64,000 nt of DNA from Candidatus Saccharimonadota bacterium (GTDB taxonomy: Bacteria > Patescibacteriota > Saccharimonadia > Saccharimonadales > JACOTW01), in NCBI GenBank assembly GCA_016178135.1, contig JACOTW010000001.1, positions 228 to 64,227 on the forward strand, read 5' to 3'. This document shows positions 4,597-62,473 of the stretch, in pieces; within the stretch, counting starts at the first letter, position 1; each line of letters opens with the position of its first letter. The notes below the pieces were generated by a model. That model was not told the DNA's origin and did no database searches. It worked only from the letters and a program-made list of their open reading frames with translations. A program made the position numbers and the translations under genes.

Positions 4597-5292
4597 ATGT
4601 CAGAGACTAACACCGTTCCGGTTCACCTCGGATTGATACTCGATGGTAATCGCCGCTGGGCAAAGGCCAATGGTCTGCCGGCTTTTGAAGGTCATCGTAG
4701 AGGCTATGAAAACCTAAAAACCATAGGCAAGACCGCCATTAAACGTGGTGTTAAGTATATTTCAGCCTATGTATTTTCTACAGAAAATTGGCAGCGTAGT
4801 AAGGAAGAAGTGGACTATCTCATGAAACTTCTTTTGTGGGTTGCCAAACACGAAGTTGCGGAGATGAATAAAGACGGCATACGCGTAAGGTTCATGGGTA
4901 GTCGGGATAGATTGAGTGCCAAGATTTTAAGAGCCATAGACGAAGCTGAAATTAAAACCAAAGATAACGTCAACGGCACTCTAGCCTTATGTTTGAATTA
5001 TGGTGGTCGGCAGGAGATAGTCGAAGCTTTTCAGAAAATGGCTGCTAACGATATCGCCACTAATGCTATAAACGAACAAACGATAGCCGATAATTTATAC
5101 CAACCAGACATTCCTCCAGTCGATCTGATTATCAGAACTTCTGGCGAACAGCGTATTAGTAATTTTATGTTATGGCGGGCGGCTTATAGCGAACTTTATT
5201 TTACTGATGTTCACTGGCCAGATTTTAATGAAGCAGAACTAGATAAGGCGCTTGAGGAATACGCTGCGCGCCACAGAAGGTATGGTAAGTAG
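4597..5292 (+). CDS. uppS: Undecaprenyl-diphosphate synthase
   Basis: HLGLILDGNRRWAKANGL and IRTSGEQRISNFMLWRAAYSELYF motifs. The ORF opens at 4591, but a TATAAT at 4583-4588 favours a leaderless ATG at 4597. Confidence 0.9.
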   Translation: MSETNTVPVHLGLILDGNRRWAKANGLPAFEGHRRGYENLKTIGKTAIKRGVKYISAYVFSTENWQRSKEEVDYLMKLLLWVAKHEVAEMNKDGIRVRFMGSRDRLSAKILRAIDEAEIKTKDNVNGTLALCLNYGGRQEIVEAFQKMAANDIATNAINEQTIADNLYQPDIPPVDLIIRTSGEQRISNFMLWRAAYSELYFTDVHWPDFNEAELDKALEEYAARHRRYGK

Positions 5293-14578: not shown

Positions 14579-14832
14579 CTAGACCAATCGCAAACTCTCT
14601 TTCGGACACGAGTTTCGCACTTTTCCATAGCCCCAGATGACACCTGACAAGCTACAGCCACTCACTCCTCACTCAACATAGGCTATAGCCCAAGCCTCCC
14701 TCGGATTGAACAACTGTAACCAGCCAGCTGCAACCTGGCATCAATGGCTAAGTGCGAAACTCGTGTCGGATAAAAACAGTTTTCGCTCGAACTGATTCGC
14801 CCTGGGAACGACGGATTTCGCGACAGGTCCAG
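14579..14832 (+). mobile_element. Internally deleted PE-A carrying a nested PE-B
   Basis: A degenerate left TIR CTAGACCAATCGCAAA joins directly to the right half ...CTGGGAACGACGGATTTCGCGACAGGTCCAG. It begins 4 nt after the stop of the Ddl-like gene. Confidence 0.75.
14606..14765 (+). mobile_element. PE-B element, full copy
   Basis: TIRs ACACGAGTTTCGCACTT/AAGTGCGAAACTCGTGT with a 3-bp TSD (CGG/CGG). Confidence 0.85.
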
Positions 14833-14876: not shown

Positions 14877-15521
14877 ATGCAAAAGGCGATGTTTGGGGCG
14901 GGGTGTTTTTGGGGAGTGCAGTATTATTTTGACCAAGTACCTGGGGTAAATAAAACTACCGTAGGCTATAGCGGCGGGCATACCAAAAATCCGTCTTATG
15001 AAGAAGTTTGTACGCATACTACTGGTCATGCGGAAGTGGTTGAAATTGAGTTTGACCCAAGTAAAGTCAGCTATGAAACACTTGTAAAACAATTTTTTCG
15101 GATGCACGACCCCACACAATTAAATAGGCAAGGTCCAGATGTAGGCGATAGCTATAGCCATCCCAAAACAAAATGACCATTTTTGTCTGCGCCTGATGAT
15201 CTAAAAACTACTTTTTTGTCTGCAGCATATCTACGGATATGCTTTAGCCAAAGAAAGCTAGTTTTTAGACTCATCATCCATCACTCAAAATTTGGTCATT
15301 TTGTTTTGGAATGGCTATATCGTTCGGCGATTTTTTATTTTGATGACGATCAAAAGCAAATTGCCGGAACAATTAAAGCGACCACGCAAAATAGTTCTGA
15401 AAAGCCCATCGTAACAGAAATAACTCAAGCTATGGAGTTTTACAAAGCTGAAGATTACCACCAAAAATACACCGAACGCACTGGTCGCGGCATGTGCCAC
15501 GTGCCATATAAAGAGGTATAG
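14877..15521 (+). pseudogene. msrA: Peptide methionine sulfoxide reductase MsrA interrupted by a PE-C insertion
   Basis: GCFWGV...[11 protein letters not shown] ends at 15155 and RSAIFYFDDDQKQ... resumes at 15321. The junction matches the conserved GxxYRSAIY. The 165-bp insert is in frame but contains a TGA at 15174-15176. Confidence 0.8.
15155..15317 (+). mobile_element. PE-C element, full copy, inside msrA
   Basis: TIRs TAGCCATCCCAAAACAAAATGACCA / TGGTCATTTTGTTTTGGAATGGCTA with a TA target-site duplication (15153-54 and 15318-19). Confidence 0.85.
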
Positions 15522-15537
15522 CATAGCAACATACAAA

Positions 15538-15559
15538 AAGTGCGAAACTCGTGTATACT
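15538..15559 (+). promoter_or_regulatory. Solo PE-B right end supplying a TATACT -10-like hexamer 7 nt upstream of an ATG
   Basis: The sequence reads AAGTGCGAAACTCGTGTATACT, then 7 nt, then the ATG at 15567. Confidence 0.5.
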
Positions 15560-26195: not shown

Positions 26196-26345
26196 ACACA
26201 AATTTCGCACTTTTCCATCGCCCCAGATGACACCTGACAGGCTACAGCGGCTCACTCCTCACTTAATGGCCCAAGACTCCCTCGGATTGAACAACTGTAA
26301 TCAGCCAGCTGCCACCTGGCATCCGGCTAAGTGCGAAACTCGTGT
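26196..26345 (+). mobile_element. PE-B element, full copy, with its right tip forming the ftsE -10 box
   Basis: TIRs ACACAAATTTCGCACTT/AAGTGCGAAACTCGTGT with a 3-bp TSD (ATA/ATA). The junction creates CGTGTATAAT 8 nt upstream of the ftsE ATG. Confidence 0.85.
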
Positions 26346-26358
26346 ATAATAGGAACGA

Positions 26359-37544: not shown

Positions 37545-37822
37545 CCTAAAAACTACTTTTTTGTCTGCAGCATATCTACGGATATGCTTTATAGGACTTT
37601 CGCACTTTGTTGCCAATGCCAGAGTGTAGCTGGGTGAGCGAAAACGGTTCAGGTTCTGGAGGGGTAGCCATAGCTACACCGAGAGAACATGGGCCGCTTG
37701 TAGCCACACAGGTTAAGTCTGGTGTGGTAAGAAAGTGCGAAAGTCCTATATAGCCAAAGAAAGCTAGTTTTTAGACTCATCATCCATCACTCAAAATTTG
37801 GTCATTTTGTTTTGGAATGGCT
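37545..37822 (+). mobile_element. PE-C (left TIR missing) carrying a nested full PE-D
   Basis: Colinear with the msrA copy on both sides of the insert. The right TIR TGGTCATTTTGTTTTGGAATGGCT is intact. Confidence 0.8.
37591..37750 (+). mobile_element. PE-D element, full copy
   Basis: TIRs ATAGGACTTTCGCACTTT/AAAGTGCGAAAGTCCTATA, inserted at the GCTT-TA-GCC site of PE-C with TA flanks. It shares the TTTCGCACTTT core with the PE-B TIR. Confidence 0.8.
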
Positions 37823-37851
37823 CTAGGAACGAGGGATTTCGCATAAGTCCA
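37823..37851 (+). repeat. Solo PE-A right-end fragment
   Basis: CTAGGAACGAGGGATTTCGCATAAGTCCAG. Confidence 0.7.
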
Positions 37852-37872: not shown

Positions 37873-38976
37873 ATGCAGGAGTTAGTTTTTTCGCCGAGTG
37901 ATTTTGTTGCTGTTTTGAATCAGACGCTGGAATCTGCCTATCCCGGCGTTATGATTCAGGGGGAGTTGGCTAATTTTCGTGTGAGTAAAAATAAATGGGT
38001 GTATTTTGATCTCAAGGACGAATATTCTTCAGTTAAATTCTTTGGAACGATCTATCAATTAACGGGGCCACTGGAAGATGGACTTATGCTACAAGTCAGG
38101 GGAATACCACGGCTACATCAAGCCTATGGTTTTAGTATTAATGTGCAATCTATACGACCAGTAGGTGAGGGATCGTTACGCAAGGCTGCGGCGTTGCTGG
38201 AGGCTAAACTGACTGCGGAGGGCTTGTTTGAGTCTTATCGTAAGCGAGCGCTACCATATCCGCCGGAGTGCATCGGGCTTATTGCGTCCAGTGAGTCTGC
38301 TGCTTATCATGATTTTATCAAGATTTTAAATAGTCGGTGGGGTGGGGTGATGATAGAGCTTGCCGACGTACAGGTTCAAGGTGATGCTGCTATTGGGCAA
38401 ATTGTTCGGGCTATAGATTACTTTAATCAACATGCCAAAATGCCCGAAATTTTAGTAATAACCAGAGGTGGTGGCAGTACTGAAGATCTGGCAGTTTTTA
38501 GTACCGAACAAGTTACGCGAGCTATAGCCGGCAGTCGTGTTCCGACCATGGTTGCCATCGGCCATGAAGTAGATTTGAGTCTGGCTGAACTAGTGGCTGA
38601 TCGGCGCGCCAGTACACCCAGCAACGCTGCCGAACTACTTGTACCAGATAAAAAACATGAACGCCAGAGGGTTATTACGCAACAAAGAAGTCTAGATGAT
38701 TATCTATCCTACCTTATGAAAAATGCTCGCGAAGCCGTGAAAAATTATCAAAAAGAACTACAAGTTGGCTGGAAAGAATATATTACTAATGCAAAACGTA
38801 CACTTAGCTTGCATCGTCAGGTACTTGCGGTTTTAGACCCTGACACCGTGCTCAAGCGCGGTTATGCGATTGTTCGTAGTAGTAATGGTGTCGTACTACG
38901 CTCAATTAAGCAAGTAGAAGCCGGTGATACACTTAATGTAGTGATTAGCGATGGTAGTTTTGAAGCTAGAGTATGA
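37873..38976 (+). CDS. xseA: Exodeoxyribonuclease VII large subunit
   Basis: An OB-fold N-terminus (GELANFRVSKNKWVYFDLKD) and a catalytic core (ITRGGGSTEDL, IGHEVD). Confidence 0.9.
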   Translation: MQELVFSPSDFVAVLNQTLESAYPGVMIQGELANFRVSKNKWVYFDLKDEYSSVKFFGTIYQLTGPLEDGLMLQVRGIPRLHQAYGFSINVQSIRPVGEGSLRKAAALLEAKLTAEGLFESYRKRALPYPPECIGLIASSESAAYHDFIKILNSRWGGVMIELADVQVQGDAAIGQIVRAIDYFNQHAKMPEILVITRGGGSTEDLAVFSTEQVTRAIAGSRVPTMVAIGHEVDLSLAELVADRRASTPSNAAELLVPDKKHERQRVITQQRSLDDYLSYLMKNAREAVKNYQKELQVGWKEYITNAKRTLSLHRQVLAVLDPDTVLKRGYAIVRSSNGVVLRSIKQVEAGDTLNVVISDGSFEARV

Positions 38977-39051
38977 CACGAGTTTAGCACTTTTCCATTG
39001 CCCCTTGGTCACACCTGAACGGCTGCAAACTTCTACTCCTCACTCAACATA
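38976..39051 (+). repeat. PE-B left portion (right portion missing)
   Basis: ACACGAGTTTAGCACTTTTCCATTGCCCC...CTCACTCAACATA is colinear with PE-B up to the TA where PE-G sits. Confidence 0.7.
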
Positions 39052-39214
39052 TAGCCCCCGCAAAACAAATTCCCGACTTTTCGAATCACCCTCTTTGGCC
39101 CAAAACCGCCTTTCCTCGTTCAACGTATCTAAGGATATGTCTCTCTCGGAAAAATCAGTTTTTGACTCAAAGATCATTGCTTCAAAAACCCACGAATTTG
39201 TTTTGCGGGGACTA
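39052..39214 (+). mobile_element. PE-G element, full copy
   Basis: TIRs TAGCCCCCGCAAAACAAATTC/GAATTTGTTTTGCGGGGACTA with TA/TA duplication. The TIR is related to PE-C (TAGCC..CAAAACAAA). A fragment recurs at about 46840-46866. Confidence 0.75.
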
Positions 39215-39397
39215 TAACGTTATCAGGAATTAAATAGCGAACTGGAGGATATTTTAGTAAAACTACAGTCTGACAGCTTGGATATAGATGAGGCCGTTAA
39301 GTTGCATGAGAGGGGTACGATTATTGTTAAAGAACTTGAGGCGTATCTGAAAAATGCCGAAAACAAGGTTGCCAAGATTAAAGCGAGCTTTGAGTAA

Positions 39398-39889
39398 GTG
39401 ACGCTTGTTTTGCTGGTATTGAGTTTTATTATTGTAACTTTTGGTTTCGTTATAGCATTTGGCGCACCATTTTTACCGACTCTTAAGCCTCAAATTGCGA
39501 TAGCGTTGGATCTTATCGATCTAAAGCCAGAACAGACACTACTAGAGCTCGGAAGTGGAGATGGGCGAGTTCTGGTTGCAGCAGCTGAACGTGGGCTCAA
39601 AGTAGTGGGCTATGAAATTAACCCGCTACTTGTCCTATATTCATGGCTTCGTACCCGTAAATATGGCAGGAACGTTAGGATTATATGGGGTAATTATTGG
39701 AATAAAAAATGGCCCCCAGTTGACGGTATATTTGTATTTTTATTAAATAGATATATGCCCAAACTGGATAAAAAAATTATTCAAGAATCTGATAATAATG
39801 TTAAGCTTGTGAGCTTTGCCTTTATAGTTCCAGGCCGAAAACCAGTCAAAATACGGCACGGTGTTTATTTATATATATACAATGATTGA
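39398..39889 (+). CDS. Class I SAM-dependent methyltransferase with an N-terminal TM helix
   Basis: LELGSGDGRVLVAAAERGLKVVGYEINP motif I/II. GTG start directly after the xseB stop. Confidence 0.7.
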   Translation: MTLVLLVLSFIIVTFGFVIAFGAPFLPTLKPQIAIALDLIDLKPEQTLLELGSGDGRVLVAAAERGLKVVGYEINPLLVLYSWLRTRKYGRNVRIIWGNYWNKKWPPVDGIFVFLLNRYMPKLDKKIIQESDNNVKLVSFAFIVPGRKPVKIRHGVYLYIYND

Positions 39890-46958: not shown

Positions 46959-47153
46959 CTGGACTTACGCAAAGCTCCTCCATCCCCAGATCGAATTCTA
47001 TCGGCTACAAACAGTTTTTCTTCTCTCAATGTAGCTACTGCTACCTCGCCTTCAGATAAAACAGTTTTCGCTCGAAATAATTCACTCTGGGAACGGACGA
47101 TTTTGCGTAAGTCCAGTTTAGCCTGGGGACGGGCGATTTTGCGACAGGTCCAG
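46959..47153 (+). mobile_element. PE-A (beta subtype) full copy plus the trailing right-end piece of a host PE-A
   Basis: The full copy spans 46959-47116 with TSD TTTA/TTTA. It is followed by GCCTGGGGACGGGCGATTTTGCGACAGGTCCAG. The arrangement is paralogous to 62101-62295. Confidence 0.85.
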
Positions 47154-47179
47154 TTTAGTATGTTTACGGGCGGTTTAAG

Positions 47180-61909: not shown

Positions 61910-61973
61910 AACCATAAGTATACTGGACCTATAGTAAAATCCCTTGAGAGTATACAACACAGTTCGAACTAGA

Positions 61974-62295
61974 CTGGACCTGTCGCAAAGCTCCCCCATC
62001 CCCAGACCAATTCATCTTGGCTGGTAGCGGTCTGTCTTCTGTCGATGTAGCTATGGCTACCTCTCCTTCAGCCAAACCACTCCCAACTCGAGCTGATTAA
62101 CTGGACTTACCCAAAACTCCTCCATCCCCAGATCGAATTCTATCGGCTACAAACGGTTTTTCTTCTCTCAATGTAGCTATGGCTACCTCTCCTTCAGACA
62201 AAACAGTTTTCGCTCGAGATAATTCACTCTGGGAACGGACGATTTTGGGTAAGTCCAGTTTAGCCTGGGAACGGGCGATTTTGCGACAGGTCCAG
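61974..62295 (+). mobile_element. PE-A (gamma subtype) host copy interrupted by a second PE-A
   Basis: The left part ends ...ACTCGAGCTGATTAA and the right part resumes TTTAGCCTGGGAACGGGCGATTTTGCGACAGGTCCAG. It is colinear with the uninterrupted copy at 13036-13366. Confidence 0.85.
62101..62258 (+). mobile_element. PE-A (beta subtype) nested inside PE-A
   Basis: TIRs CTGGACTTACCCAAAA/TTTTGGGTAAGTCCAG (a compensated G/C change in both TIRs) with flanks TTAA/TTTA. Confidence 0.85.
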
Positions 62296-62473
62296 TATAA
62301 AGACCTCTTGTTTGCGACGTCAGGTGCCAACCAGAGCATGTCGTACAGCGATAAACGCGGATCGGTTTTTTTAATCTTCTCAAGGGGTTAATTTTTTTTA
62401 GAGTTGCTTGAGCGGCCACATCGCTAGTGAAGCGTACTTTCTGTTTGCAGACATTTCTAGAGTTATTATTCAT
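62183..62473 (-). CDS. Small CxxC (zinc-ribbon-like) protein whose C-terminal ~37 codons and stop come from PE-A
   Basis: The native part is MNNNSRNVCKQKVRFTSDVAAQATLKKINPLRRLKKPIRVYRCTTCSGWHLTSQ. The ORF enters PE-A at 62295 and runs on to 62183. Confidence 0.4.
   Translation of the reverse strand: MNNNSRNVCKQKVRFTSDVAAQATLKKINPLRRLKKPIRVYRCTTCSGWHLTSQTRGLYTGPVAKSPVPRLNWTYPKSSVPRVNYLERKLFCLKER

Follow-up and report, generated by a model that had tools for sequence, protein, structure and literature searches.

The 64-kb window, that is, the whole stretch of Candidatus Saccharibacteria DNA analysed here, has a G+C content of 43% and carries the gene for the large subunit of exonuclease VII (ExoVII), xseA, followed on the same strand by a remnant of the small-subunit gene xseB and by a methyltransferase-like gene (Table 1). 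Comparison of XseA with protein profiles gave matches to PF02601 (3e-71) and TIGR00237 (326.7 bits, cutoff 180) and a further one above the cutoff of PF13742, in agreement with the original prediction that this gene is intact. Its sequence is identical to that of the gene of 367 aa called in the assembly GCA_016196105.1, while the identity to the nearest species-level relatives is about 64%. The xseB frame of 59 codons covers positions 1–52 of the 52 positions of PF02609 (43.9 bits, cutoff 24) and scores 51.2 bits against TIGR01280 (cutoff 35), so that the whole domain is present above cutoff, directly 3' of xseA and in the same orientation. What the window does not hold is a complete open reading frame with an initiation codon before helix 1 of the protein: the earliest ATG, GTG or TTG is the TTG at 39278, codon 21 of the remnant, exactly as had been predicted for the XseB-like body. 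A second xseB copy, which it had been suggested to look for, was not found by tblastn in the 64-kb window. The 241 bp separating xseA from the xseB remnant consist of repeat DNA.

Table 1. Features of the xseA–xseB region, in positions of the window
Feature	Position	Strand	Description
xseA (exonuclease VII large subunit)	37873..38976	+	367 aa, intact; TGA stop 38974-38976
PE-B left arm	38977..39049		Miniature inverted-repeat element, terminus ACACGAGTTT(A/C)GCACTTTTCC; right arm absent from the window
PE-G	39050..39216		163-bp element 39052-39214 with TA at 39050-51 and 39215-16; nested in the centre of PE-B
In-frame TAA	39215..39217	+	Abuts the xseB remnant; TA flanking PE-G plus last base of what was codon 4 (GCA, Ala4)
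Deletion junction	39216..39217		107 bp lost: PE-B right arm, spacer and xseB 5' end
xseB remnant	39218..39397	+	Ancestral codons 5-63 (of 63) and the TAA stop
Methyltransferase-like gene	39398..39889	+	Weak Methyltransf_25/23 matches; unaffected; begins directly after the xseB stop

The repeat DNA is a composite of two elements, designated PE-B and PE-G. The sequence 38977-39051 matches the window at 14607-14680 and 26197-26266, among others, and the PE-B left arm aligns to full-length copies of about 160 bp at 14605-14766 (76% identity) and 26196-26352 (71%). At positions 4663-4739 of the sister contig L081, in which the right arm comes after PE-G, this left arm recurs with 100% identity. PE-G itself has arms of 39 nt that are 82% complementary, and the PE-B copies without PE-G contain a single TA, in the sequence CAACATAGG, at the point of PE-G insertion. 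Terminal inverted repeats, small size, the absence of coding capacity (the open reading frames across PE-G have no Pfam match), a target-site duplication and the existence of both filled and empty sites are all found for PE-G, as for a miniature inverted-repeat transposable element. Furthermore, a second copy of 163 bp with 84% identity, likewise flanked by TA, is found in GCA_040960765.1 only (L084:3274-3440), upstream of xseA, whereas the corresponding site of the window, CTATATAGCC near 37750, is empty, which makes PE-G a separate unit whose presence differs from strain to strain. The only Rfam match of the PE-G hairpin was to a plant miRNA family (32 bits, gathering score 140) and was judged to be due to chance. 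As a side observation, full PE-B copies seem to be flanked by direct repeats of 3 bp, CGG/CGG for the copy at 14607-14765 and ATA/ATA for that at 26196-26345, and PE-G by TA; judging from these flanks, the two families may use different transposases. The flanks of the PE-B copy between xseA and xseB, ATG and ACA, do not match.

Relatives of the locus were collected by a protein search with the 59-aa xseB body, which yielded 13 matches. Among them are proteins of 63 aa with identities of 100% and 98%, both of which begin with MVKA followed by RYQELN..., and the contigs encoding them carry xseA, a spacer of 336 bp and xseB in the same order as in the window. The flanks of the locus in GCA_016196105.1 match the window at 100% over 4904 bp on the left and 5181 bp on the right, and only 2 SNPs distinguish the two across a further 20.8 kb. 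The intact xseA–xseB layout is also present on a 654-kb contig of GCA_040960765.1, which is about 99.5% identical to the window strain, and the intact xseB allele on 7 further contigs from independent assemblies, on which it is adjoined by the same downstream gene of 163 aa. In both GCA_016196105.1 and GCA_040960765.1 the gene starts ATG GTA AAA GCA CGT TAT..., the true start being ATGGTAAAAGCA, and the whole composite lies 5' of this ATG. The xseB remnant is 100% identical to residues 5–63 of the intact sister protein (P0001).

Alignment of the two alleles demonstrated that the 241 bp of the window correspond to the first 241 bp of the sister spacer, after which the window has a gap of 107 bp. 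The lost segment comprises the right arm of PE-B (85 bp, ending ...AAGTGCGAAACTCGTGT), an 11-bp spacer ACAATAGTACT and ATGGTAAAAGC, the latter being xseB codons 1–3 and two bases of codon 4 (ATG plus 8 bases). The junction in the window reads GGGGACTATA followed by ACGTTATC, whereas the intact allele reads GGGGACTATA followed by GCTACGG at the left end and GGTAAAAGC followed by ACGTTATC at the right end; the junction of the window is also spanned by GCGGGGACTATAACGTTATCAGG, and may likewise be written as GCGGGGACTATA followed by ACGTTATCAGG, as against GCGGGGACTATA followed by GCTACGG in the intact allele. The left end is exactly the outer edge of PE-G, after the TA, and the two ends share no microhomology. 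Removal in silico of L081:4905-5011 from the sister contig regenerates the window sequence exactly. For the intact composite, folding predicts a nested hairpin with pairing between the arms of PE-B (-58.7 kcal/mol, z = -6.4), and the deleted part therefore completes PE-B. Direct comparison thus establishes the ancestral state as well as the deletion and the exact position of both its ends. With regard to polarity, sequence comparison identifies the intact xseB allele as ancestral and that of the window as a derived deletion allele, because the near-clonal GCA_016196105.1, the 99.5% identical strain and the 7 further contigs all carry the intact form, because the missing piece completes the PE-B palindrome, and because more distant loci have a short XseB leader and an xseB gene that starts 0–9 nt after the xseA stop. 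The order xseA–xseB is kept in 75 of 80 such Saccharibacteria loci, and the same proportion (75 of 80) have an xseB with a short M-x(2-10) leader before a conserved tyrosine; in all 13 junctions examined among these 75 loci, the xseB start follows the xseA stop by 0–9 nt and never falls inside xseA.

Two causes of the deletion were considered and discarded. Slippage is opposed by the ends without microhomology, and the nearby similarity between ACGGTTAT and ACGTTAT predicts a different junction. A TA-targeted adjacent deletion by PE-G is opposed by the intact allele, which has GC and not TA before ACGTTATC.

The original prediction had explained the headless gene by insertion, the composite having entered between an xseB start at ATG 38951 or ATG 38973 and the body of the gene, so that excision would restore it; a variant of this explanation is that the composite is translated in frame, as with the palindromic elements of Rickettsia. 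The features on which it was built do exist: ATG 38973 overlaps the xseA TGA as ATGA, and ATG 38951 opens an 88-codon frame that is in phase with the xseB body, runs across all 241 bp of repeats and stops at the TAA 39215-39217, which indeed uses the TA flanking PE-G, its third base being left over from the former codon 4. It was also right that the lesion lies at the PE-B/PE-G composite, which it abuts; its cause, however, is a deletion of 107 bp and not the insertion of repeats, as the alignment with GCA_016196105.1 demonstrates. In the sister genomes the same composite is situated wholly upstream of the true start, not between start and body, and the N-terminus is MVKAR... rather than MRYQELN or MVVLKLEYQELN, neither of which occurs in the 13 protein matches or in 75 xseB frames of related loci. 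Moreover, in none of the 13 related junctions examined does the xseB start fall within xseA; it follows the xseA stop in each of them. Taking out PE-G together with one TA (165 bp) would not remove the TAA. There is no extra DNA of some 245 bp in the window, which is instead shorter than the intact allele by 107 bp, and precise excision of the repeats would not restore xseB. The comparison of junctions in related genomes that had been proposed as a check thus returned an intact 63-aa XseB with the composite and the additional 107 bp in GCA_016196105.1. Insertion, or translation in frame, is refuted by the start in the sister genomes, the alignment gap, the 13 related junctions and the exact reconstruction, and has practically no probability left.

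A more serious alternative is that the 107 bp were dropped by a local error during assembly or curation of the metagenome-assembled genome (MAG) of the window, the real genome having the 336-bp spacer and an intact xseB. The deletion allele is known from a single deposited assembly, which is otherwise near-identical to the sister assembly across about 31 kb, and the gap is located among palindromic repeats that are nested and multi-copy, a setting in which short-read contigs end and local assembly errors concentrate; the right arm of PE-B is where four contigs (L082, L083, L085 and L088) begin. Both SNPs between the two assemblies (window 47048 and 62291) are inside repeat copies as well and may represent consensus noise from multi-copy sequence. 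On the other hand, the ends of the deletion share no sequence able to cause a mis-join in an assembly graph, and the right end reaches 11 nt into unique coding DNA and thereby lies 89 nt beyond the site where independent short-read contigs break (inside the repeat, 78 nt 5' of the xseB ATG). The contig has no Ns at the site, and a de Bruijn contig requires reads that hold the junction k-mers, which also counts against an artefact. Exact-protein look-ups of the deletion-specific products (the 51-aa P0003, the 39-aa product with a TTG start and the 88-aa open reading frame 38951-39217) retrieved no other contig, and a scan of JGI metagenomes with the first 30 nt of the xseB remnant gave 0 matches for either allele. 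Exact look-ups of XseA and of the 156-aa version of the downstream gene retrieved two contigs only, one of which is presumably the window's own. Taken together, an assembly error appears unlikely, though it retains appreciable weight, and the allele is considered likely to be a real, very recent deletion that most likely abolishes xseB function.

The sequence of events leading to this allele was most likely the following. In an ancestor of the species-level lineage, PE-B of about 160 bp would have landed in the very short spacer between the xseA stop and the xseB ATG (0–9 nt in other Saccharibacteria), and the 163-bp PE-G would subsequently have inserted at the central TA of PE-B, extending the spacer to 336 bp and leaving both genes whole; both insertions would predate the split of the window strain and the sister strain. 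From then on xseB, with 326 bp of hairpin-forming DNA between it and xseA, would probably have been transcribed from TGTACAAT. In the intact allele this sequence is formed by the outer end of PE-B together with its flank (L081:4990-5003), is located 6 nt 5' of the xseB ATG and has, at the level of the motif, the appearance of an extended -10 box; it is therefore a probable promoter of intact xseB. A consensus scan of the intact spacer for sigma-70 promoters and terminators, which requires a -35 box, gave 0 sites. Finally, a blunt deletion of 107 bp, very recent and confined to the population of the window, would have removed the PE-B right arm, the 11-bp spacer with the -10-like box, the ATG and the next 8 bases, and would have fused the TA flanking PE-G to the third base of codon 4 to create the in-frame TAA. 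With regard to these steps, we infer that the deletion is of biological origin and that it cost xseB both its promoter and its function.

The consequences for the protein were considered on the basis of an AlphaFold model of the intact 63-aa XseB, which has helices at residues 3–20 and 27–62 (pLDDT 92.3), so that the ancestral protein is predicted to form the two-helix hairpin. The hairpins of XseB, to which helix 1 belongs, grip XseA and assemble into three-helix bundles along its stalk; XseA purified on its own has no activity (PMC10835039). The allele is most likely null because its 59 unchanged codons have neither a promoter, a start codon nor an upstream frame to join, because XseB hairpins bundle with XseA and because XseA alone is inactive; it is probably null also because the products that could start at CTG 39242 or TTG 39278 have lost most or all of helix 1. 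The former keeps 8 of the 18 helix 1 residues, without the invariant Y6 and E12, and in the latter helix 1 is wholly gone. ExoVII in the window strain is accordingly most likely inactive.

It has to be weighed against this that the deletion may be real and a shortened XseB nevertheless be made, from CTG 39242 (51 aa), ATT 39251 or TTG 39278, and that ExoVII works. The NCBI entry MBI1856684.1 (P0003), a protein of 51 aa beginning MEDILVK... that corresponds to window 39242-39394 read from the CTG, is named exonuclease VII small subunit, the Pfam domain is covered in full by the 59 codons left, which carry no damage, and an AGGA is present 13 nt 5' of CTG 39242. However, the NCBI annotation is a prediction only, the spacing of the AGGA is poor in a window where just 10 of 40 genes have a Shine-Dalgarno-like core, and 10 of the 18 helix 1 residues, including invariant Y6 and E12, would be missing. 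Many genes here look leaderless; this mode of translation requires a promoter and an AUG at the 5' end, both of which are deleted. A functional short XseB is thus very improbable, and the 51-aa annotation is probably a call of a truncated pseudogene. The remnant has not decayed at all, which fits the very recent event preferred here and would equally fit an artefact or a gene that is still used.

What is seen at xseB in this one MAG is therefore either an assembly error or an ordinary, very recent loss of function at the strain level. Even in the latter case, no more than a single population of uncultivated Saccharibacteria would lately have lost ExoVII, which processes the ends of single-stranded DNA as well as DNA–protein crosslinks. 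The lesson is that, for a beheaded gene beside repeats, sister genomes should be compared before an insertion is blamed. The more promising lead is offered by the repeat landscape, with its nested, strain-variable elements that end at gene starts.

The window is crowded with nested elements of the PE-B/PE-G kind. A nested repeat composite of about 326 bp at 61972-62297 is shared with GCA_016196105.1 and absent from the 99.5% identical GCA_040960765.1, where the empty site (L091:18758) reads CGAACTAAAGACC; the filled site has a TA duplication. Comparison of the two sites indicates recent mobility of this composite. At 37546-37825, a palindrome of about 159 bp (37592-37750) with the ends ATAGGACTTTCGCACTT...AAGTGCGAAAGTCCTAT, inserted at TA, divides a repeat unit whose copy at 15201-15319 is uninterrupted; the flanking segments are 99–100% identical to that intact copy. 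A difference in repeat length is seen between window 47052-47166 (about 113 bp) and L091:3907-3948 of the 99.5% strain (about 40 bp). In a 3.8-kb contig of GCA_040960095.1 (L087:1-860), the sequence left of the PE-B/PE-G composite is unrelated to xseA and the PE-B left arm is just 88% identical to that of the window; this left part reflects either a rearrangement or a chimera formed at the repeat. A literature search for Saccharibacteria together with miniature inverted-repeat elements found no papers.

With regard to gene starts, two repeat families end in ...GCGAAACTCGTGT and ...CGAAAGTCCTATA at 6–13 nt 5' of the ATG of long open reading frames. Such ends are found in the window at 15554, 26345, 4584, 19182, 25083, 36432 and 2281, as well as at L081:4990-5003; element end and flank together read TGTATAAT (e.g. 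at 26345), TATATAAT or TATACT, and TGTATACT at 15554. PE-B and another family form TGnTATAAT-like boxes at this distance from the start of several genes. There are two options: insertion of the elements into -10 boxes, which the TA duplication then regenerates, or supply of the promoters by the elements themselves. Among the 48 open reading frames of the window with at least 150 aa, 17 of the 26 matches of TATAAT-like hexamers lie 2–9 nt 5' of the ATG. Leaderless transcripts seem to be common because -10-like hexamers cluster at the ATG and Shine-Dalgarno-like cores are few, which suggests that leaderless or near-leaderless mRNAs are widespread here. A broader and tentative reading, which on balance is doubtful, would be that TA-targeting miniature elements are moving at present and accumulate where leaderless genes have their -10 boxes, that their ends regenerate or create TGnTATAAT, that the end of PE-B became the xseB promoter after the gene was uncoupled from xseA, and that the loss of 107 bp at the edge of PE-G was an adjacent deletion driven by the element or by the palindrome. 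If this were true, such elements would be a source of rapid on/off variation of genes in the reduced genome of an episymbiont.

Among known systems, XseA of E. coli is longer than the 367-aa XseA found here. The E. coli exonuclease VII is an XseA4·XseB24 complex (PDB 8TXR), and the intact 63-aa XseB aligns to residues 9–61 of the E. coli small subunit (E = 4e-5) with the same two-helix hairpin predicted; the allele of the window differs in that its XseB has no start. The small non-coding Correia repeat enclosed elements (CREE) of Neisseria are about 100–160 bp long with inverted-repeat ends, insert at TA, vary between strains and are situated mostly 5' of genes, where their ends can create promoter sequences (PMC2649163). 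PE-G resembles them in its TA duplication and strain polymorphism, as do PE-B and another family in ending 6–13 nt before ATGs; the likeness concerns the TA target and the promoter-like ends only and is an analogy that claims neither membership nor a sequence relationship, while the host here is a member of Saccharibacteria and PE-B copies seem to have flanking repeats of 3 bp rather than TA. The palindromic elements of Rickettsia are in-frame insertions in coding genes. The locus shares with them the palindromic repeats at gene borders and one frame that is open through the whole composite; unlike in Rickettsia, the composite lies outside both open reading frames, 5' of the ATG, in the intact allele, and in the window the in-frame TAA at 39215 separates it from the xseB body, so that it does not qualify as a translated insertion of that type. 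Finally, the window allele is like other strain-specific inactivations by a small 5' deletion, in that one event removed both the putative promoter and the start, the rest of the gene is undecayed and a near-clonal sister is intact. Unlike a typical case, the deletion in the window, seen in one MAG only, begins exactly at the outer border of a nested mobile repeat and takes away one of the two arms of a palindrome.
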